Positions 12,935 to 22,178 of a stretch of 64,000 nt of DNA are shown here, in pieces; position 1 is the stretch's first letter; every line of letters begins with the position of its first letter. The notes under the pieces were generated by a model. That model worked only from the letters and a program-made list of their open reading frames with translations. It had not been told where the DNA came from and made no database searches. Source of the stretch: an uncultured virus (IMG/VR IMGVR_UViG_3300015608_003726) (taxonomy: Duplodnaviria > Heunggongvirae > Uroviricota > Caudoviricetes); IMG/VR virus record IMGVR_UViG_3300015608_003726. The stretch is one strand, 5' to 3'. The translations under genes and the position numbers were made by a program.

Positions 12935-14167
12935 CTACAAATTCAAATCATCCATATGAACCACTTCTTGATCTACCTGCTTTTCTGTTTTCTTCTTATT
13001 ATTTTTTTTACTCTTAGGTGTTTCATCTATCTTTATTTCATCTGTCTCTGTTTCTCCTGATTTATTTTTTTCCATATATGTCAATATTTCAGGAGGTAAT
13101 GCAAATTCTTTTTCTTCTGCTTTTTGTATAACATCTTGAACAAGTTGCTTTAGAGCATTTGTATCTGATGCTATTTTTGACATAAAAGCAGATTTCCCTA
13201 TTTCTTTAATATCGCCATATGAATATGTATTTTTATGTATTCGTATAACATTTAATTGCCTACCAGTATTGAATAAATGGTCTGCAAAATTAGGAAAATA
13301 GAATTTATAGTAAATAGGTATTTCTATAGAATCTCTCACAGGAGCCGCAAAGCGATTTTTCTTAATCATAACATATGCCTTGCCTCCGACTACTTCTGTT
13401 TCTCCATTTTCATTTTCTATTTCAATAATAGAGGATTTACCATTTGCCTTAGAAACCTTAAGCCTTACAGAACAAGCATGTTTTAAAGCTCTTCCTCCTG
13501 GAGTTGTTTCCGGGTCTCCCCATAAAACTCCAATCTTTTCTCTCAACTGATTTATAAATACGCATAATACTTTATGCTTCGATGCATAGTTAGCAAGTTT
13601 CGGCAAATGAGTAGAAAGTGTTCTAGCTAAAGCTCCAACTGACATCTTATCAGCATCATGCTCCATTGTATATTTAGGAGACATAAATGCAACAGAATCT
13701 AAAACAACAACCTGAATTTTCCCGCTCTTACATACAGCAATCATTTTATCAATAATAGCTTCTGCATCATCGACTTTTTCAGGATCATCTGCGTGAGTTA
13801 AATCTGCATATGCAACATCATCTACATTAACACCATTTATTTTCGCTAATTGTTCTGAAAAACTGTGTTCTGTATCTATCCAGGCACACCTATATCCCAT
13901 TTTTTGAGCATTACCTACAATACGATAAGCTATACTTGATTTTCCTCCGCCTTCTTCTCCATATATTTCAATAAGCTTACCAAGAGGAACTCCTCCTTGC
14001 ATAAGCATTTCATTATCTGAAGAAGAATTATCAGGATCTTGCAATACTCCTCTCGCTATAGCAAAATCTAATTGAGGATGACCAGTAGGTATAAAAACAA
14101 GACTACCAACATCTGCTCCTAAAGTAAAACCATCAAGACCTTCTATAACGCTTGCTTTTTTAGCCAT
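12935..14167 (-). CDS. recA: RecA recombinase
   Basis: IPTGHPQLD, IEIYGEEGGGKS, IDTEH, VVLDSVA, FINQLREKIGV, ETTPGGRALK, KNRFAAP. Confidence 0.95.
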   Translation of the reverse strand: MAKKASVIEGLDGFTLGADVGSLVFIPTGHPQLDFAIARGVLQDPDNSSSDNEMLMQGGVPLGKLIEIYGEEGGGKSSIAYRIVGNAQKMGYRCAWIDTEHSFSEQLAKINGVNVDDVAYADLTHADDPEKVDDAEAIIDKMIAVCKSGKIQVVVLDSVAFMSPKYTMEHDADKMSVGALARTLSTHLPKLANYASKHKVLCVFINQLREKIGVLWGDPETTPGGRALKHACSVRLKVSKANGKSSIIEIENENGETEVVGGKAYVMIKKNRFAAPVRDSIEIPIYYKFYFPNFADHLFNTGRQLNVIRIHKNTYSYGDIKEIGKSAFMSKIASDTNALKQLVQDVIQKAEEKEFALPPEILTYMEKNKSGETETDEIKIDETPKSKKNNKKKTEKQVDQEVVHMDDLNL

Positions 14168-16282: not shown

Positions 16283-16612
16283 TCAACTTAAACTATCAAA
16301 ATCATTCTCTTTTTTGGCATTTGATTCTTCTTTTTGATCAAAATTTTGCAAAGAAGAAAGACCTAAACCGGATACTACGCTTTTAAAAGTCTGTATAAAA
16401 TCTGCCTGTATATATTCGTCAAATTTTCTTGTTTTATTCCATAATTCATCTTTGCTAGACCAGTCAATCTCTTGTTGCCAAGTTCCTCCAACATCTAAAG
16501 TTTCATATGGAGCTGTATTTATTTTTCTAGAAATTGTACGAGTAACAACTGTTTTTCTGGACTCTACATCTTTATTATTATCATTATTTGCCATATCAAA
16601 ACCCCTTTTCAC
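16283..16612 (-). CDS. Hypothetical protein
   Basis: 109-aa ORF (may start at MANND); motif RKINTAPYETLDV. Confidence 0.65.
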   Translation of the reverse strand: MKRGFDMANNDNNKDVESRKTVVTRTISRKINTAPYETLDVGGTWQQEIDWSSKDELWNKTRKFDEYIQADFIQTFKSVVSGLGLSSLQNFDQKEESNAKKENDFDSLS

Positions 16613-19600
16613 ATGTTAAATATATCAACGTCTTCTACGCCCTTTTTTAAAGCCTTTTTAAGATCTTCTCTTATAACACAAAAATCATCTACTATATTTT
16701 TCTTATTTTTGTCTCTATCAAAAAAACCAGCTTGATACAAAGCCTCTATCGCTTTTTTGTCTACAGATTTTGCTTCTGTTTTTGCTGCAAAATCTCTAAG
16801 ATCCTTATACTTCTGATGCTTTACAATCGACTCTGCAGCAGCAGAAGAAAGACCCTTACACATAATAGATGGACAAATAGACGAGCGATAGACGCCGCTT
16901 GACAAGTCTTTTTCTGCAGAAATTTGATAATCTATTTTACATTTATTAATTGATCTAGGAAGTATATCTATACCCATCCTCTCAGCCTCTTGTTCTAGCT
17001 GTTCTACTCTTTCGTGTTTAGAACGTTTACTTTCTACATTTAAATAACAACACATAAATACTTCTGGAAAATTTGCTTTCAAATAAGCTGTTATATAAGA
17101 AAGATTTGCATAAGCACACGAGTGGCTATTGCTTGTACAAATACCATTAGTTAACAAAAAATTATGGGTAGAACAGGACACTTCAAGATCATACATCCTT
17201 TGCTTGCCCACGGGCTGGATTCGTATAATTTGCCTAGACACCAAATGCCCGGTTTCGGAGATTTTAGCATAGAATCCATTATCAAAAACCACTCCTCTTT
17301 CATCTCTCCGCTTGAACTTTTGAAACATTCCATAGAAATTCTTATGAGCATTATATTCCTTCTCAAAGCCTCTATATTCAGCATTTCGTCTCTCTCTTGA
17401 GTAGTTTTCAAATCTCTTGTATCGTTTCTTTTTCTGTGAAATTTTGGATGAGGAAAGAAATGGTAAAACCCATCTACTTCTATCCATATATTTTCTTTTA
17501 CAAAATCCACTTGTTTTTGACGATCTCCACAACGAACTCTCTGAGATTCCCATTTGATTTTGTTTCTTAGCCACGTCTCCATTCTTGATACTTTTGGACT
17601 TTTCTGGGCCGCAAAAATACATTCTTTGAATTTTTCCGGATTGGATTCTCTCCATTTTCTTAACGTTTCTGAACGAGAAGCTAAAATCTCTGGTCTTGAC
17701 GATGTTCTTTTTGCAGTTTCTGAAAGTATAGCTTTTATTTTTGGAGATTGATTGTTTTTGTTTAATATTTTCATACGATTTATAATATTTTGTTTTTTGA
17801 TGTCTTGGCATTTTTGACATTCTTTTTGATGTTGAATCTTTGTTGATAAAGTAGCACAAGTTATTCCGCATCTTGAAACATGAACCACTATCTCGCCAGA
17901 TGGTTTCTTTTTCCAAGCCAAAGATCGACATATTTTGCATGATGATTGATGTATTTTTTTCTGCCTTATCGATAATACTGTTTGACCGCATCTTGCATGG
18001 CATATTATTGCTTTCATATAAAGAATCTCCTTCTTCATAGTGAGTTCCGTAAATAGAAAGCCCATTCCTCCAAATATGCCAAAGAGGAAGTTGACCTTTT
18101 GAGGTTAAAAACTTATGATCAATACTACATATAACTTCGCTATTATCATCAAAAATAACTCTATATCCATCCAAAAAACCATGATCATGCAAATTAACTA
18201 CATTAGTTAATTCAATTTCTCCATTTTCATTAATACAAAAAACTTTATCTCCAGGCATAAAATTCTTCAATTCCTTATTTCCATCCGGCGTTCTTATAGA
18301 AGTATTTTCGAGCATACTTTTGTTGAATCCGTAAGAGGCAAAGGGAGTTATAAATTTATCCCAATACTCAGCAGAAAGATCTTTATTTATATTCTTATCA
18401 CAGCATCCTTGTATAAAATTATTCCTATATTTTTTTAGTAATGTTTCATTTTTCTTTCCGACAGCTTTAATAACTCCATAACCATCAGAAATAGAAAAGC
18501 CAGCAAGAGAATTACATATTTGCATTAAAGTTTCTTGATAACAAATAATTCCATAAGTGCTTTCTAAATATGGCTTAACATAAGATTCTATTGATTTATG
18601 ATAATAAGAAATAGGTTCTAATTTTCTTTTTCTATTTGCATACGAAGGAATCGAAGAAAGAGGACCTGGTCTATATAAAGCTATAATAGCAATAATATCT
18701 TCAAACCTATCGCATCCAACTTGTACGAAAGTTTTCTGCATACCAGGCTCTTCTGCCTGAAATACTCCTATAAGATTTCCTGATTGATAAAGATCAAATG
18801 TTTTTTTGTCTTTAAGATCTAAGTTTTTAATGTCTATAGATATATCATATCTTTCTTTGATCATTTTTAAACATTCAGAAACTACAGTTAAAGTACTAAT
18901 AGCTAAAATATCAAATTTAATAAGACCAAGAGTTTCTAAATCTTCATTTGTATATTGAGTGGCATATACTACCGCATCTTCTCCTTCATCATTTTCTTTA
19001 ATAATTTTTGTCTGTCTTAGTGGAGCTATATCAGATAGTGGTACATCGCACAAACAAACTCCAGCGGGATGAACTGAATATATAGAAAGAAGTCCCTCAA
19101 TATATTGCGAGTGCTTAAGTATATCTGGATATTGATCCATATAAAACGCAAACTCAGGACACCATTTATAAGCATCCTTAACAGATTTAATAACATGTTC
19201 TTCTCCATTGTCATCGGTAACTTTAAGAACAGCTCCTCTTTGAGGAGGAAGAGAATTTACAATCTCGTCTGCTTTTTCATTAGCCTCTGATTCCCACTCT
19301 TTGCTTATCTTGCCTTCTCCCCTTACATATCTGCTAATATCTGAAGAAGTATTGTATTTAAAAAATGATTTAGTAGGATCAAGAGACTTAACAGATCTAC
19401 GAATATAAGATTTCATTTTCATGGCCTGATATGTGCCAATGTTACCGACTCTTTCTTGACCGTATTTTTCAATCAAATACGAATATATTTCAGATCTACG
19501 TTCGTAGTCAAAATCAGTGTCAATATCGGGAAATCCAACTCTTGCGAATGATCTTCTTTTTGGTAAAAAATTATCTGATGTAGGTTTTTTATTTGTCAAT

Positions 19601-19815
19601 CCGATAGCATAAGCAGTCCAAGAATTGATATTATTTTCATTTCCTAACATACCGATATGGCTCTTCCATATATTGTAGAAAACCATTATAATAGGTTTTC
19701 CATCTATTCCATCAATAGATGACATTATTTTTATTTCTTCGTTTACTTTAGGTAATAAACTCTTGTCCTTAACGGAATCAAGTATTTCTTTAATTATATT
19801 ATCAAAACTAGCCAT
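16609..19815 (-). CDS. dnaE: DNA polymerase III alpha, catalytic/C-terminal part (palm with PDIDxDF, fingers, HhH), intein-containing
   Basis: FPDIDTDF, KYG, SVHPAGV, GLIKFDILAISTL, GVFQAE, ALYRPGP, TYGIICYQE, YGFNK|intein|SHSCAYA, AYLKANFP. Confidence 0.95.
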   Translation of the reverse strand: MASFDNIIKEILDSVKDKSLLPKVNEEIKIMSSIDGIDGKPIIMVFYNIWKSHIGMLGNENNINSWTAYAIGLTNKKPTSDNFLPKRRSFARVGFPDIDTDFDYERRSEIYSYLIEKYGQERVGNIGTYQAMKMKSYIRRSVKSLDPTKSFFKYNTSSDISRYVRGEGKISKEWESEANEKADEIVNSLPPQRGAVLKVTDDNGEEHVIKSVKDAYKWCPEFAFYMDQYPDILKHSQYIEGLLSIYSVHPAGVCLCDVPLSDIAPLRQTKIIKENDEGEDAVVYATQYTNEDLETLGLIKFDILAISTLTVVSECLKMIKERYDISIDIKNLDLKDKKTFDLYQSGNLIGVFQAEEPGMQKTFVQVGCDRFEDIIAIIALYRPGPLSSIPSYANRKRKLEPISYYHKSIESYVKPYLESTYGIICYQETLMQICNSLAGFSISDGYGVIKAVGKKNETLLKKYRNNFIQGCCDKNINKDLSAEYWDKFITPFASYGFNKSMLENTSIRTPDGNKELKNFMPGDKVFCINENGEIELTNVVNLHDHGFLDGYRVIFDDNSEVICSIDHKFLTSKGQLPLWHIWRNGLSIYGTHYEEGDSLYESNNMPCKMRSNSIIDKAEKNTSIIMQNMSIFGLEKETIWRDSGSCFKMRNNLCYFINKDSTSKRMSKMPRHQKTKYYKSYENIKQKQSISKNKSYTFRNCKKNIVKTRDFSFSFRNVKKMERIQSGKIQRMYFCGPEKSKSIKNGDVAKKQNQMGISESSLWRSSKTSGFCKRKYMDRSRWVLPFLSSSKISQKKKRYKRFENYSRERRNAEYRGFEKEYNAHKNFYGMFQKFKRRDERGVVFDNGFYAKISETGHLVSRQIIRIQPVGKQRMYDLEVSCSTHNFLLTNGICTSNSHSCAYANLSYITAYLKANFPEVFMCCYLNVESKRSKHERVEQLEQEAERMGIDILPRSINKCKIDYQISAEKDLSSGVYRSSICPSIMCKGLSSAAAESIVKHQKYKDLRDFAAKTEAKSVDKKAIEALYQAGFFDRDKNKKNIVDDFCVIREDLKKALKKGVEDVDIFNM
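17151..18017 (-). CDS. Vsr/DUF559 (EDxHD)-like homing endonuclease nested in the +1 frame of the DnaE intein
   Basis: AAGGAG-9 nt-ATG start at 18017; two RCG...H...CxxC Zn-finger-like repeats; basic helical segment; nuclease core SRME...QVDF...IEVDGFYH...QERD...LIRI; stop at 17151. Confidence 0.85.
   Translation of the reverse strand: MKAIICHARCGQTVLSIRQKKIHQSSCKICRSLAWKKKPSGEIVVHVSRCGITCATLSTKIQHQKECQKCQDIKKQNIINRMKILNKNNQSPKIKAILSETAKRTSSRPEILASRSETLRKWRESNPEKFKECIFAAQKSPKVSRMETWLRNKIKWESQRVRCGDRQKQVDFVKENIWIEVDGFYHFFPHPKFHRKRNDTRDLKTTQERDEMLNIEALRRNIMLIRISMECFKSSSGEMKEEWFLIMDSMLKSPKPGIWCLGKLYESSPWASKGCMILKCPVLPIIFC
18027..18032 (-). promoter_or_regulatory. Internal Shine-Dalgarno site for the nested endonuclease
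   Basis: GAAGAAGGAGATTCTTTATATG: AAGGAG 9 nt upstream of ATG 18017, within intein codons E-E-G-D. Confidence 0.7.
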
Positions 19816-19821
19816 AATTGT

Positions 19822-20784
19822 TTATTCTAAAAAACCATATTTCTTAATTATATTATAAATACTAAAATAGCCTCTTTCAGTATCTTCAGAGATTTTGTTA
19901 CATATTTGTTTTTTTGACATTCCTTCGCTATTATATTTACGACAAAGATCTTCTATTCTACATAAGGTTTCACTATCTATTTTTTTACCTTGATTTTGTG
20001 GGTATAATTTATTTTTATTTTCTGATATATCAGATCCGTATTTTATATCTTTTATTTTTTCTATATGATAGTCATAAGCATTTTTATTTTTCTCAAAACC
20101 TATGATCTTTCTTCCCATCTTTAAAGAAACATAAGCAGTAGTAAAATTACCAAGAAAAAAATCACAAACAACATCATCCTTATTTGAAGCATATTCAATT
20201 ATCTTTTTTATTAGTTCATTAGGCAATTTGTTTGCATTCTTTGTCTTATCAATATCATATTCTCTATTTATCTCCCATACATCTTCTATATCAGAATATA
20301 AAAGAGATCTCCCTTTTATGTCTTTGTCATAATAAGAGTATCTACCATACAAATTAAATGTATTTTTACTTTTCTTGTCTTTTTTGTAATACAGTATATG
20401 ATAATGAGAAGTTACAAATTTCTTTTTTGTATTTACGCCGAAATTGTATTTCCATATTATATGATTTATTTCAAATAATTTATTTATTCTTGCAGCTGTC
20501 ATAATATCATACAATGAAGAATGTCCTGAAATGACAAACAAAGAGCCATTATCTTTAAGTATTCTTTTTGCTTGTTCCATCCATGAAACGGTCCAATCTA
20601 GGTATTTTTCTGGAGCTTCTACATATCCAGGAATGATCTTATCATTATTTCTATTATAGTGCTTTGAAAAACTTGATTCTCCTATTCCAAAAGGAGGATC
20701 GCATATAATTAAATCAATGCTTTTATCACCTATTAATTCAATAGATCCTTGTATACAGTCTTTGTTATATATATGATAGTTCAT
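19822..20784 (-). CDS. N4/N6 DNA methyltransferase (beta class) with C-terminal helical extension
   Basis: IDLIICDPPF, RILKDNGS, IIWKY, KLPNELI, DVVCDFFLGNFTT, GRKIIGFE. Confidence 0.88.
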   Translation of the reverse strand: MNYHIYNKDCIQGSIELIGDKSIDLIICDPPFGIGESSFSKHYNRNNDKIIPGYVEAPEKYLDWTVSWMEQAKRILKDNGSLFVISGHSSLYDIMTAARINKLFEINHIIWKYNFGVNTKKKFVTSHYHILYYKKDKKSKNTFNLYGRYSYYDKDIKGRSLLYSDIEDVWEINREYDIDKTKNANKLPNELIKKIIEYASNKDDVVCDFFLGNFTTAYVSLKMGRKIIGFEKNKNAYDYHIEKIKDIKYGSDISENKNKLYPQNQGKKIDSETLCRIEDLCRKYNSEGMSKKQICNKISEDTERGYFSIYNIIKKYGFLE

Positions 20785-22178
20785 TAATATCTGTCAACTC
20801 CGCCAAGATCATCTTCAACTTCTCTTGCATCTTCTGTTTGAGAAGAAACAGGTATTTTATGTTTTGTATCTGAGAAAAAATCCTGTACAGATACGTACCG
20901 AAGAGAATCAAATCCTAAAAATCTTTCCCATAACAACCCATATTCAATAGGATCAGGCCCATATGCTATTTCAAGCGTTCTTAATAATACGCTTCCGTAC
21001 CCGCTTCCTCTGCCAGCTCCAACTAAAATTCCTCTTTTTTCTGCTTCTTTTATATAATCTCTTACAATAAGAAAATAAGTAGAAAAATCATATTTATTAT
21101 TATCTAAAGCAACTTTTACATCTTCTATTTCTAGATTTAATCTTTTTACATGATCTGGACTTTTATCCCAATTAAGTCTCTTAAGCCCGTCGTAAGCCAA
21201 ATATTTCATATATTCAAATGGAGAAGAAAATTGCTCAGGTATTTTTATTTTAGGCAGCCTCATACCTCCGTTTAAATGAGAATATATATCATTAAAATCA
21301 ACAGATTCTGCAAGTATATTTGTATTATATAGCAATTCTGGTCTTGTACCAAATATTTTACCCATCTCAGGAGCCGATTTTAAATAAAATTCATCATAAG
21401 GGAAGTGAAGATGTTTTGGATCATGAAGACATTTTGATGAGGAAATTGCCATAAGAAGTTCGTGGGATTTACCCATATCTTTTGAAGTATAATGAGTATC
21501 GTTGGAACATATCGTTTTAATGTTTAATTCTTGACCCAGCTTAATAACATCTGGTATAATAGCAGATTCAGCATCTATTCCATGATACATTACTTCTAAA
21601 TAGAAATTTTCTTTAAATATATCTTTTAAATAAGATGCAGTTTTCTTTGCCTGGTCGTATCTGTCATGAAGAAGATTTGCATTAATGACAGAAGAAAGAC
21701 AAGCAGAAGAAACTATAAGTCCTTCGCTGTGTTTTTCTAGTAAACCAAAATCTATGCGAGGATTTCCAATATAATAACCCTCTGTCCAGCTCATTTGGCT
21801 CAAACGACATAGATTTTGATATCCGGCCCAATTTTTTGCTATAATAACAAGATGTCTATTACCTCTTTTAAGATCCGGTTGCTCTTCTTTTGATCTTGCA
21901 AATCTATTTTTAGACACATAAAATTCGGAACCTATTAATGGCTTTATAGTTGGATAAGGTATTTCTTTTCCCTCCTTATCCTTTGTCTTCATACATTCTT
22001 GTATAAACTTTATAGCTCCGCCAATGTTACCGTGATCTGTTATAGCAAGACTTCTAAACCCCATCTTTCTTGCAGCCATCGGAAACGAAGAAATTTTATT
22101 CAATCCATCAAAAGAAGAATATTCAGTGTGACAATGTACATGCACAAAATCTGCATTTGATACGATCTTTTTTCCCAT
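20784..22178 (-). CDS. dnaE: DNA polymerase III alpha, N-terminal part (PHP domain through the GRGS and ERFL motifs)
   Basis: FVHVHCHTEYSSFDG, AITDHG, GSEFY, HL..AKN..GYQNL, SACL, FYLEV, NDTHY, YFLIV, GAGRGSGYGS, LLWERFL, then an acidic tail and stop. Confidence 0.93.
   Translation of the reverse strand: MGKKIVSNADFVHVHCHTEYSSFDGLNKISSFPMAARKMGFRSLAITDHGNIGGAIKFIQECMKTKDKEGKEIPYPTIKPLIGSEFYVSKNRFARSKEEQPDLKRGNRHLVIIAKNWAGYQNLCRLSQMSWTEGYYIGNPRIDFGLLEKHSEGLIVSSACLSSVINANLLHDRYDQAKKTASYLKDIFKENFYLEVMYHGIDAESAIIPDVIKLGQELNIKTICSNDTHYTSKDMGKSHELLMAISSSKCLHDPKHLHFPYDEFYLKSAPEMGKIFGTRPELLYNTNILAESVDFNDIYSHLNGGMRLPKIKIPEQFSSPFEYMKYLAYDGLKRLNWDKSPDHVKRLNLEIEDVKVALDNNKYDFSTYFLIVRDYIKEAEKRGILVGAGRGSGYGSVLLRTLEIAYGPDPIEYGLLWERFLGFDSLRYVSVQDFFSDTKHKIPVSSQTEDAREVEDDLGGVDRY

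Follow-up and report, generated by a model that had tools for sequence, protein, structure and literature searches.

A phage DnaE intein with a predicted Vsr/EDxHD-like nuclease gene in its +1 frame

The DnaE locus of an uncultured Caudoviricetes virus raises the question of how one stretch of DNA can encode both the middle of an intein and, on the same strand in the +1 frame, a separate nuclease. The window, that is the whole stretch of DNA analysed, has a length of 64,000 nucleotides, and the features described here lie on its minus strand. The C-terminal part of DnaE (DNA polymerase III alpha) is encoded at 16609..19815 by an open reading frame (ORF) of 1068 amino acids, which was identified by ORF calling and by Pfam matches to DNA_pol3_finger (E 5.8e-47), DNA_pol3_alpha (2.9e-27) and HHH_6 (1.7e-10). 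An intein of 397 codons (17128..18318) splits this ORF at YGFNK/SHS, the slash marking the splice junction. A second called ORF of 304 amino acids (17151..18065) overlaps the DnaE ORF in the +1 frame and contains an internal ATG at 18017, from which a protein of 288 amino acids is read.

The splicing parts of the intein were analysed with respect to their motifs and predicted structure. The 397-residue translation reads YGFNK/SMLENT...CSIDHKFLT...MYDLEVSCSTHNFLLTNGICTSN/SHS. The normal DnaE-intein splicing blocks of the original prediction are present: Ser1, the block B histidine (SIDH, within CSIDHKF), MYDLEV of block F and THNF...TSN of block G with its terminal Asn, followed by Ser as the +1 extein residue. 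The columns H68, D377, E379, V380, H385, N386, T395, S396 and N397 are invariant among the relatives (n = 23 sequences for H68), and position 1, which is Ser in the window, is occupied by S, T or C in each of the 24 loci that carry the nuclease gene embedded in an open intein frame and have a visible junction. The penultimate residue is Ser and not His; the Npu and Ssp DnaE inteins likewise end in SN. AlphaFold2 gave pLDDT values of 92-96 for residues 1-90 and 91-96 for residues 361-397. The N-terminal splicing domain (residues 1-95; 18034..18318) was delimited by pLDDT and Foldseek, and the C-terminal splicing domain (residues 350-397; 17128..17271) by pLDDT and the conserved LVxRKIVRVxPVGKRxMYDLEV...HNF...TSN. 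Foldseek gave 45 matches at E<=1e-3, every one of them an intein, an intein-like (BIL) domain or a Hedgehog autoprocessing domain; the Npu DnaE intein ranked first (4kl5_A, E 7.1e-07, rmsd 1.5 across 94 columns). The Pfam family Intein_splicing matched with E 2.7e-6 and 27.7 bits, which is below its gathering score of 35.8, and this match bridges both ends over a long insert. The results support intact splicing domains with a predicted HINT fold in a class 1 (Ser1) cis-splicing intein. Since stops in the intein are selected against and the extein is conserved, the DnaE intein may be taken to perform protein splicing.

Between the two splicing domains lie residues 96-349 (17272..18033), which are stop-free, rich in K, S, R and N (K38, S32, R23 and N20 of 254 residues) and predicted to be disordered, all having pLDDT below 50. 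This agrees with the earlier description of the middle as K/R/S-rich sequence with no domain. In the GC-rich loci L006 and L007 the filler is instead rich in G, R, A and E. The view that the intein middle behaves as filler is supported, as it is free of stops, otherwise conserved no more than a non-coding frame and predicted to be disordered. An unstructured insert of this size might slow or impair splicing.

The putative homing endonuclease gene (HEG) occupies 17151..18017 in the +1 frame of the intein, with 288 codons and a stop according to the ORF call and translation (MKAIICHARCG...PIIFC). The stop at 17151-17153 is situated nine codons ahead of the last intein Asn, so that the HEG overlaps block F, as had been proposed, and also block G. 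Six homologues of the +1 protein were found in the database (39-56% identity, E 2e-89 to 5e-50), and a search of the representative library at E<=1e-3 gave 229 clusters. Searches of the 'phages' collection, by tblastn with the +1 protein and by blastn with the DnaE ORF, found nothing. The two expected zinc-finger-like repeats were located at 17928..17990 (C26-x12-H39-x3-C43-x2-C46 in P0002 numbering, with a strand-strand-helix arrangement) and 17808..17870 (C66-x12-H79-x3-C83-x2-C86). The matches of the first repeat to CTCF zinc fingers were weak (E 0.056, prob 0.92), and the number of repeats ranges from 1 to 4 among the nuclease homologues. The N-terminal region is built from CHCC finger-like repeats, whereas the described EDxHD members have a NUMOD-type region.

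The Vsr/EDxHD-like core predicted from the sequence was delimited by structural alignment and invariant columns at 17181..17588 (residues 160-295 of P0002). The +1 ORF carries the motif NIWIEVDGFYHF, and E163, D187, E196, D198, H202 and D226 are invariant in seven sequences. When the nuclease model was compared with 48161 chains by VIA-align, the two best were Vsr (1cw0_A, Z 9.5, rmsd 3.6, 135 aligned) and I-Bth0305I (3r3p_B, Z 7.9, rmsd 2.8, 89/98 aligned). The latter is the prototype EDxHD homing endonuclease, encoded by an intron in recA (PDB 3R3P; Taylor et al. 2011, PMC3239194). The window nuclease resembles it, as there described, in the predicted fold of the catalytic domain and in the order of acidic and His residues, which were mapped onto E170, D196, N208, H213 and D222 by order and spacing and not by residue-level superposition; it differs in having C-x12-H-x3-C-x2-C finger-like repeats in place of N-terminal NUMOD/HTH motifs. 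The PDB profile search with the +1 protein gave nothing under E 0.29, its rows being at chance level, and contained no sequence-level match to I-Bth0305I. The Pfam and PHROG family searches gave no match for the +1 protein. The structure search proposed for both frames succeeded for the intein, where Foldseek matched HINT domains, and failed for the nuclease, whose whole model had no Foldseek match at E<=1e-3. The nuclease call therefore draws on one structural aligner and on motif mapping. The combined results support the +1 ORF as a conserved protein with a predicted Vsr/EDxHD fold, and we infer that it would act as a site-specific homing endonuclease cutting intein-less DnaE.

Chance does not account for both open frames. 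Over the 288 shared codons of the window no stop occurs in the intein frame and 29 occur in the third frame. A set of 1000 synonymous-codon permutations of the window HEG gave a mean of 20.0 intein-frame stops with a minimum of 10, which shows that the earlier estimate of about 20 stops expected by chance was right. The 28 non-redundant embedded loci have 0 intein-frame stops in 7325 codons against 388.7 expected by permutation, and 481 in the third frame, while the eight non-embedded relatives have 167 against 177.7 expected (tblastn ranges clipped to the open frame). For the GC-rich members the permutations give a low expectation of 3.7-9.8 stops. The avoidance of T-ending HEG codons before AA, AG or GA codons, for which a check had been proposed, was complete in the embedded loci (0/2311, against 1494/4986 in other contexts), and in the window the figures were 0/97 and 74/190. 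In the non-embedded loci such T-ending codons were found in 167/638 cases.

The selection on each frame was analysed for the nuclease core in 25 sequences. The nucleotide entropy at HEG codon positions 1, 2 and 3 was 0.84, 0.69 and 1.36, and the amino-acid identity was 57.4% in the HEG frame, 31.4% in the intein frame and 30.7% in the third frame. The dN/dS per frame, likewise proposed with the original prediction, gave median NG86 omega values of 0.061 (HEG), 2.2 (intein) and 1.37 (third), which are to be read with the interdependence of dN/dS between overlapping frames and with HEG-frame dS saturated in 12 of 28 pairs. The calculations show strong purifying selection on the nuclease frame. 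Over the HEG, the intein frame is selected solely against stops, through the absence of T-ending codons before AA, AG or GA. With an identity close to that of the third frame, predicted disorder and no stops, the data are in accordance with an intein that tolerates off-frame translation as filler.

The HEG and DnaE loci of relatives were surveyed, the latter by an alignment-based scan. There were 36 non-redundant HEG loci, 28 of them embedded in an open intein frame, and two further loci (L059 and L084) were found through DnaE. Among the embedded loci with a visible N-junction, 23/24 are located at DnaE GF[NC]x/[ST], and SH follows in all of them. The dual-frame layout is confirmed to be real, and selection maintains it in dozens of related phages. 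Other states were found at this site. In L040, an L003-type intein has lost the HEG by a 774-nt in-frame deletion, leaving a mini-intein, and L009 is another mini-intein; L118 has an in-frame HNH intein. In L005 and L035 homologous nuclease and intein pairs occur as split inteins at the same DnaE site, the host gene being broken in two ORFs, and L041-L045 and L050 are further fractured relatives. The window is not fractured, its intein frame being continuous over 397 codons. The representative library contains a 779-aa IntN-nuclease fusion (P0097); longer in-frame fused nuclease forms were absent from 699 candidates, this search in itself being weak evidence. A single-protein pattern search revealed no close relatives of the window DnaE N-extein. 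The element is sporadically distributed: at the same site, some relatives are intein-less, some have lost the HEG and some are split. The tie to fractured genes that had been suggested is real, as L005 and L035 show. A quick tree does not decide whether these two derive from embedded ancestors. At 72 of 80 viral DnaE loci no intein is present at the site, and these are possible target alleles; L052 represents such an intein-less allele, with the uninterrupted sequence FNKSHS.

The start signals of the nuclease gene were examined in the window and in the relatives. A Shine-Dalgarno (SD)-like AAGGAG is present at 18027-18032, nine bases 5' of the HEG ATG, so that the 288-aa same-strand ORF with its own ribosome binding site is as originally predicted. 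An SD-like tetramer and a start codon are found upstream of the first finger in 23/26 embedded loci against a background of 10.6%. An RNA hairpin is predicted at 18022..18048, in which AGGAG of the SD pairs with an upstream CUCACU. The hairpin is uncertain for the window, where the result depends on the segment folded: the 60-nt fold (-12.8 kcal/mol, z -2.8) has the SD paired, and in a 54-nt segment the hairpin is not the minimum-energy fold and the SD is unpaired. The prediction is clearer in the relatives, where 18/23 local folds had the SD fully paired, compared with 17.2% of 985 controls; because the loci are related, independence is overstated by the Fisher and Mann-Whitney values for this pairing. 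RNAalifold gave no consensus pairs for 13 upstream regions because MAFFT placed the hairpin arms out of register, and hairpin covariation is therefore seen by eye only.

Different explanations of the layout were weighed against these data. An ordinary in-frame nuclease domain displaced by two compensating sequencing or assembly indels would agree with the in-frame position of canonical intein endonucleases and with the in-frame HNH intein of L118. The contigs of four runs from four independent studies, which confirm the sequence, span 17000-18500 with 0 differing letters and 0 gaps; the same frame relation is found in 28 non-redundant loci whose nucleases share 38-56% identity; and the nuclease frame has its own start with stop codons a few codons upstream. 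The loci and the identical contigs refute this explanation, whose probability is close to nil. One of the runs that contain the stretch (X7) is an RNA run, which as contigs shows no transcription, start or strand; it has loose ends at 17543 and 18254. Programmed frameshifting, into the +1 frame close to the start of the nuclease and out of it again close to its end, would yield a canonical in-frame domain, with frame 0 not the main product, and the nuclease does sit between block B and block F, the usual place of an endonuclease. There would be no reason, however, to purge all stops from an untranslated frame, and 0 stops in 7325 codons were found where 389 are expected. In several loci the nuclease frame is blocked only a few codons before the ATG (3 codons in L002 and L003), the SD and start are found in 23/26 loci, and the nuclease terminates 4-16 codons ahead of the end of the intein, which would require a second precise shift. 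Such frameshifting is very improbable.

The remaining two alternatives concern the function of each frame. The middle of the intein could be a functional basic disordered segment, for example in DNA binding or in the regulation of splicing, rather than mere filler, as its composition in the window is strongly basic (K38 and R23 of 254) and it is always kept in frame. This is improbable, since among relatives its identity (31.4%) equals that of the third frame (30.7%) with omega of about 2.2, its make-up tracks base composition in L006 and L007, and mini-inteins without most of the segment persist (L009, L040). The window nuclease could also be an inactive, decaying passenger heading for the kind of deletion seen in the mini-inteins. 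The HEG loss in L040 fits this, as do an SD hairpin in the window that is less regular than those of the relatives and a fairly long window branch (0.77 in the quick tree). The window nevertheless retains intact the six invariant residues of the catalytic site, the two finger repeats, the SD and the ATG, and neither a frameshift nor a stop interrupts the 288 codons, making decay unlikely.

The element is very probably a mobile composite in phage DnaE, namely a class 1 cis-splicing intein whose central linker carries a free-standing-type HEG in the +1 frame. Ribosomes translating DnaE would read through frame 0 and produce a disordered basic linker of about 254 residues between the HINT halves, which would then associate and splice the polymerase. 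The endonuclease would be a separate product, translated by ribosomes that initiate within the intein ORF at the SD and ATG of the HEG. As the SD is locked in a predicted hairpin in most relatives, its expression is probably low or coupled to the passage of DnaE-translating ribosomes. In the protein, a helical linker would join two zinc-finger-like modules to a Vsr/EDxHD core, and the enzyme presumably cuts intein-less DnaE alleles near the FNK/SH codons, upon which repair would copy in the whole element.

The original prediction regarded the layout as unheard of, which does not hold, as out-of-frame and antisense intein endonucleases have already been described and the arrangement is not unprecedented. 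In a cyanobacterial dnaX intein, a LAGLIDADG homing endonuclease lies out of frame (Phillips, DeSimone & Gogarten 2026, bioRxiv 10.64898/2026.09.14.751524); these authors credit the first proposal to Gorbalenya 1998 and propose secondary HEG invasion of a mini-intein. As presented there, the dnaX intein is, like the window intein, contiguous, with a disordered in-frame middle, and its nuclease is encoded by an overlapping ORF that has SD motifs; low dN/dS values mark the nuclease frame and high values the host frame, and full, mini and intein-less alleles coexist. It differs in nuclease type (LAGLIDADG against Vsr/EDxHD), frame (+2 against +1) and host gene (cellular dnaX against phage dnaE), and the available account describes no fractured sister forms, unlike the window family. 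In non-canonical actinobacteriophage inteins, the endonuclease and the splicing domain are encoded in different frames (Gosselin, Arsenault & Gogarten 2025, bioRxiv 10.1101/2025.01.02.630785). The window fits this type, having a contiguous ORF, an unstructured centre and an overlapping ORF with a predicted folded nuclease, and purifying selection acts on its nuclease frame and is relaxed in the host frame (omega 0.061 against 2.2; identity 57.4% against 31.4%). As in the window, VSR-like endonucleases matching 1CW0 and 3R3P are reported there, with an in-frame part without recognisable structure. Those VSR-like genes are antisense, whereas the window gene is on the same strand; the same-strand out-of-frame case of that account is endonuclease VII-like and in frame 3. 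According to the same source VSR-like endonucleases are otherwise known only from split inteins, and its available text lists no VSR-like gene in DnaE on the same strand in the +1 frame. In the phage ShiLan, an out-of-frame HNH insertion is found in a methylase (Arsenault et al. 2025, PMC11855218), and as described the homing nuclease is likewise hidden in a second frame of an insertion whose host frame is open. Lacking intein splicing domains, that element keeps its insert in the protein, whereas the window insert would be removed by protein splicing.

A further comparison is with the fractured genes, in which a free-standing Vsr-like (later 'EDxHD') HEG lies between split-intein halves (Dassa et al. 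2009, PMC2677866). In the portions of that account used here, the likenesses are a Vsr-like core behind N-terminal DNA-binding modules, a phage DnaE host, a nuclease gene whose 3' end overlaps the intein C-part in another frame and an RBS-sequestering hairpin upstream of the nuclease; the DnaE-3 IntC of the supplement resembles the C-domain of the window intein. Unlike those genes, the window intein is one continuous ORF with the nuclease wholly inside and the stops purged, and the overlap is about 867 nt against 6-69 bp. The model given in their Fig. 5 legend contains in-frame integration or fracture only and has no contiguous form with the nuclease out of frame. What is new here is a Vsr-like nuclease on the same strand in the +1 frame, together with the connection to fractured genes.

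A wider reading, which is tentative and has the odds against it, would make the family the missing link of the fractured-gene model, with all states (intein-less, mini-intein, contiguous with a +1 Vsr-like HEG, IntN-HEG in-frame fusion and split intein) at one DnaE codon and the dual-coded contiguous state as the hub. If so, one nonsense mutation in the filler together with a start codon before the C-domain would give a split intein, and a single in-frame deletion a mini-intein. Translation of the nuclease would be mechanically coupled to that of the polymerase, since the hairpin sequestering the SD is situated within the intein ORF and would be melted only by ribosomes reading DnaE.

In-frame annotation would label the intein middle as having no domain or as a degenerate endonuclease, and annotation confined to this frame misses the mobility gene of phage DnaE inteins that form a widespread group. 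The family is a clean case of one-sided overprinting, with ordinary protein selection in one frame, stop avoidance alone in the other and a simple codon-pair rule. If the intein splices, it tolerates a disordered insert of about 250 residues, which would be useful for engineering. Split inteins such as gp41-1, which comes from the fractured-gene loci, serve as protein-ligation tools, and their origin is therefore of practical interest. As homologous elements occur as split inteins at the same site, the family gives a testable route between contiguous and split inteins.

The DnaE gene of the window was analysed along with its intein and the ORF overlapping it; in the window, all of these lie on the minus strand. 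The DnaE ORF (16609..19815, 1068 aa) carries the polymerase core of DNA polymerase III alpha by Pfam (finger 5.8e-47, alpha NTPase 2.9e-27, HHH_6 1.7e-10). Its reading holds a 397-residue insert (17128-18318) with YGFNK on one side and SHS on the other, and Ser is both the first residue of the intein and the residue after it. The motifs CSIDHKFLT (block B), MYDLEV (block F) and THNFLLTNGICTSN (block G) were identified, while the middle is abundant in K, S, R and N. The score of Pfam Intein_splicing on this intein was under the model's cut-off. Residues H68, D377, E379, V380, H385, N386 and T395-S396-N397 are invariant in 23 aligned intein-frame sequences. The AlphaFold2 model from this alignment gave pLDDT values of 92-96 for residues 1-90, 91-96 for residues 361-397 and below 50 at each position of residues 96-349. 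All 45 Foldseek matches of the model at E<=1e-3, gp41-1 among them, were intein, intein-like (BIL) or Hedgehog autoprocessing domains; the top match was the Npu DnaE intein (E 7.1e-07, rmsd 1.5 over 94 columns). Taken together, these features make the intein look functional.

The stretch is contained in 20 public runs from 13 studies. Contigs of four runs, each from a different study and none marked as a possible source, span 17000-18500 with no differing letters and no gaps, which confirms the sequence; one of these runs is RNA-labelled and consists of contigs, which cannot show transcription. In that RNA-labelled run, X7, two short contigs agree with the window over 30 bases and depart from it at 17543 and 18254; they may represent other alleles or strains of the sample.

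A further break in the DnaE gene lies upstream of this ORF (19822-22178). A 464-aa ORF (20784-22178) carries PHP and DNA_pol3_alpha profile positions 2-97, and an N6_N4 DNA methylase gene (19822-20784) separates it from the polymerase-core ORF, which covers positions 69-260, so the two parts overlap in the profile. No intein motifs were found at this upstream break. In L006 (318-2416), a GC-rich relative, the PHP-part and DnaE core ORFs are separated by an HNH-type ORF of 144 aa (...DHDHATGLFRGIVCHPCN...), which looks like a second mobile insertion within one gene. Downstream, a RecA-family recombinase gene (12935-14167, Pfam RecA 2.3e-51) adjoins the DnaE cluster, consistent with a phage module for replication and recombination.

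The overlapping ORF (17151..18065, 304 aa) lies in the +1 frame relative to DnaE; read from its internal ATG at 18017 it has 288 codons, and AAGGAG stands nine bases 5' of that ATG. The original prediction had read this arrangement as a separately translated endonuclease inside a cis-splicing intein, and its positions and its account of the layout were right. The +1 ORF encodes a real protein. Pfam and PHROG gave no family for it; six protein-database homologues showed 39-56% identity (E 2e-89 to 5e-50), and a profile search of the representative library gave 229 clusters at E<=1e-3. In the AlphaFold2 model the mean pLDDT is 71.7, and residues ~160-280 form a confident core. The proposed Vsr-like fold was recovered in the structural search against 48161 representative chains, where Vsr 1cw0_A ranked at the top (Z 9.5, 135 aligned, rmsd 3.6) along with the I-Bth0305I catalytic domain 3r3p_B (Z 7.9, 89/98 aligned, rmsd 2.8); Foldseek with the entire model returned no significant match. 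The residues E163, D187, E196, D198, H202 and D226 are invariant in the nuclease alignment and, by order and spacing rather than superposition, are the putative counterparts of the E/D/x/H/D catalytic residues of I-Bth0305I (PMC3239194). The N-terminal part has two C-x12-H-x3-C-x2-C repeats, modelled as strand-strand-helix units with weak zinc-finger matches; homologues have one to four.

Scans with the nuclease alignment revealed 10 viral and 41 metagenomic loci. After removal of duplicates and of seven short C-terminal matches (<=57-64 residues; mini-intein or fragment loci), 36 distinct nuclease loci were left, including the window. In 28 of them, hereafter embedded loci, more than 300 codons are open in the frame one base upstream; two of these loci (L036, L038) are 5'-truncated. 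The N-junction is visible in 24 embedded loci, all with SH after ...SN, and 23 lie in DnaE at GF[NC]x|[S/T]. The nuclease stop is 4-16 codons 5' of the last Asn of the intein, therefore the entire gene travels within the intein. The remaining locus, L008 (3280-4542), has the same intein and +1 nuclease pair with Cys1 in a host protein other than DnaE (junction ...EIMF|C...ITSN|SHLVDS); it is the longest branch of the tree, and its placement suggests a jump into a new host gene.

Whether the double open frame arises by chance or by selection was evaluated with 1000 permutations of synonymous codons within the nuclease ORF, a null that preserves both the protein and the codon usage of the ORF. 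Over the 288 shared codons the window has 0 stops in the intein frame and 29 in the third frame, while the null gave a mean of 20.0 and a minimum of 10, in accordance with the roughly 20 chance stops estimated originally. For the 28 embedded loci, the homologous part has 0 stops in 7325 intein-frame codons and 481 in the third frame, against a null total of 388.7; the eight loci whose intein frame is not open showed 167 stops, with 177.7 expected. An intein-frame stop requires a T-ending nuclease codon followed by a codon beginning AA, AG or GA. The suspected avoidance of this pair is complete in the window (0/97, against 74/190 T-ending elsewhere) and in the embedded loci (0/2311, against 1494/4986 in other contexts), and non-embedded relatives break the rule (167/638).

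Frame-specific selection was measured on 25 full-length embedded sequences, with L016, L036 and L038 excluded as truncated. The mean pairwise amino-acid identity of the nuclease core was 57.4% in the nuclease (HEG) frame, 31.4% in the intein frame and 30.7% in the third frame. The median NG86 dN/dS, calculated for 28 pairs at 70-99.5% core nucleotide identity, was 0.061, 2.2 and 1.37, respectively, the HEG-frame value being computable in 16 of the 28 pairs as dS was saturated in the others. Nucleotide entropy at nuclease codon positions 1/2/3 was 0.84/0.69/1.36. From these identities and dN/dS values, the intein-frame middle is constrained only to remain open. Both frames are conserved (64.5% and 57.6%) over the last ~38 nuclease codons, where the gene runs across the intein C-domain, and as judged from the alignment this short 3' segment is truly dual-coded.

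The SD was analysed for expression of the nuclease. GGAG, GAGG or AGGA precedes a start codon upstream of the first finger by 4-13 bases in 23 of 26 embedded loci, against a background of 10.6% of start triplets in host ORFs, and the N-termini from these starts read MP(K/T)(K/R)K..GW..(R)CG. In local folds the SD is fully paired in a hairpin in 18 of 23 loci versus 17.2% of 985 control sites, with a mean energy of -13.4 versus -8.9 kcal/mol. The stems vary among loci in a compensatory-looking manner (AUAUAUUGU/ACAAUAUA, AUCUAUCUUGU/ACAAGAUAGA, AUAUAUCGU/ACGAUAUA). A predicted SD-sequestering hairpin before the nuclease ATG is thus likely in embedded loci, not proven, because the formal consensus fold was out of register and the loci share ancestry. 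For the window, a 60-nt fold (z -2.8) joins the SD to an upstream CUCACU, a pairing that is absent from a 54-nt fold. Fractured loci are known to have RBS-sequestering hairpins before their free-standing endonuclease genes (PMC2677866), whereas the embedded hairpin sits within a translated ORF, and for this reason translation of the nuclease could plausibly be coupled to that of DnaE. Across L001-L034, many relatives share ..CAAUAUA(A)GGAG.. in the ~20 bases just 5' of the start, which may stem from the hairpin, from codons of the intein frame or from a promoter-like element; T4 late-promoter-like boxes were seen in the loci of Dassa et al. (PMC2677866).

The link to fractured genes drawn in the original prediction was borne out at the same DnaE codon. 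L005 and L035 are classical fractured genes, with DnaE-N and an IntN stopping soon after block B, then a homologous nuclease, then an IntC and DnaE-C ORF overlapping the nuclease 3' end (by 154 nt in L005). Read in the former intein frame, their nucleases contain 26 and 27 stops, matching the null expectation, and in a quick tree both fall inside the embedded group with weak support. A fractured clade at greater distance comprises L041-L045 and L050, and its IntC resembles the DnaE-3 IntC of the Dassa supplement. P0097, a 779-aa DnaE fragment from the representative library, runs from an FNR| site IntN in frame into a homologous Vsr-like nuclease up to the protein end; it also holds a complete mini-intein at a different site. 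L009/L010 and L039/L040 are mini-inteins, L040 being an L003-type element minus 774 nt in frame, with SD, ATG and catalytic core lost. Among the best 80 of 352 confirmed viral DnaE matches, 72 have no intein at the site, one lacks the motif, three have the Ser/Thr1 type (L059, L084, L131; the first two also carry a +1 nuclease) and four have Cys1 inteins, of which three are apparently split and the other is contiguous, with an in-frame HNH. The FNK| site Cys1 inteins are unrelated to the window type: L118 is contiguous with the HNH motif, and L053, L061 and L106, whose frame closes ~100-110 codons past the junction, look like split inteins. This codon is apparently a hot spot for inteins.

A 2009 paper (PMC2677866) described this nuclease family and linked it with the split inteins of phage DnaE; the model given there provides for in-frame integration or fracture only. 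The cyanobacterial dnaX intein carries a +2-frame LAGLIDADG gene (bioRxiv 10.64898/2026.09.14.751524; that preprint attributes the first proposal to Gorbalenya 1998), and actinobacteriophage inteins have antisense LAGLIDADG, antisense VSR-like and frame-3 endonuclease VII-like genes (bioRxiv 10.1101/2025.01.02.630785). In the portions of the literature covered, no report of a same-strand +1 VSR-like gene in a contiguous intein was found. Out-of-frame nuclease genes inside contiguous inteins are already in print, as rare cases, and the window element is not a new category. Selection, fold and comparisons among relatives all support the mechanism of an off-frame endonuclease carried as intein filler, and the particular value of the DnaE family is that it offers a complete series of states at a single site.
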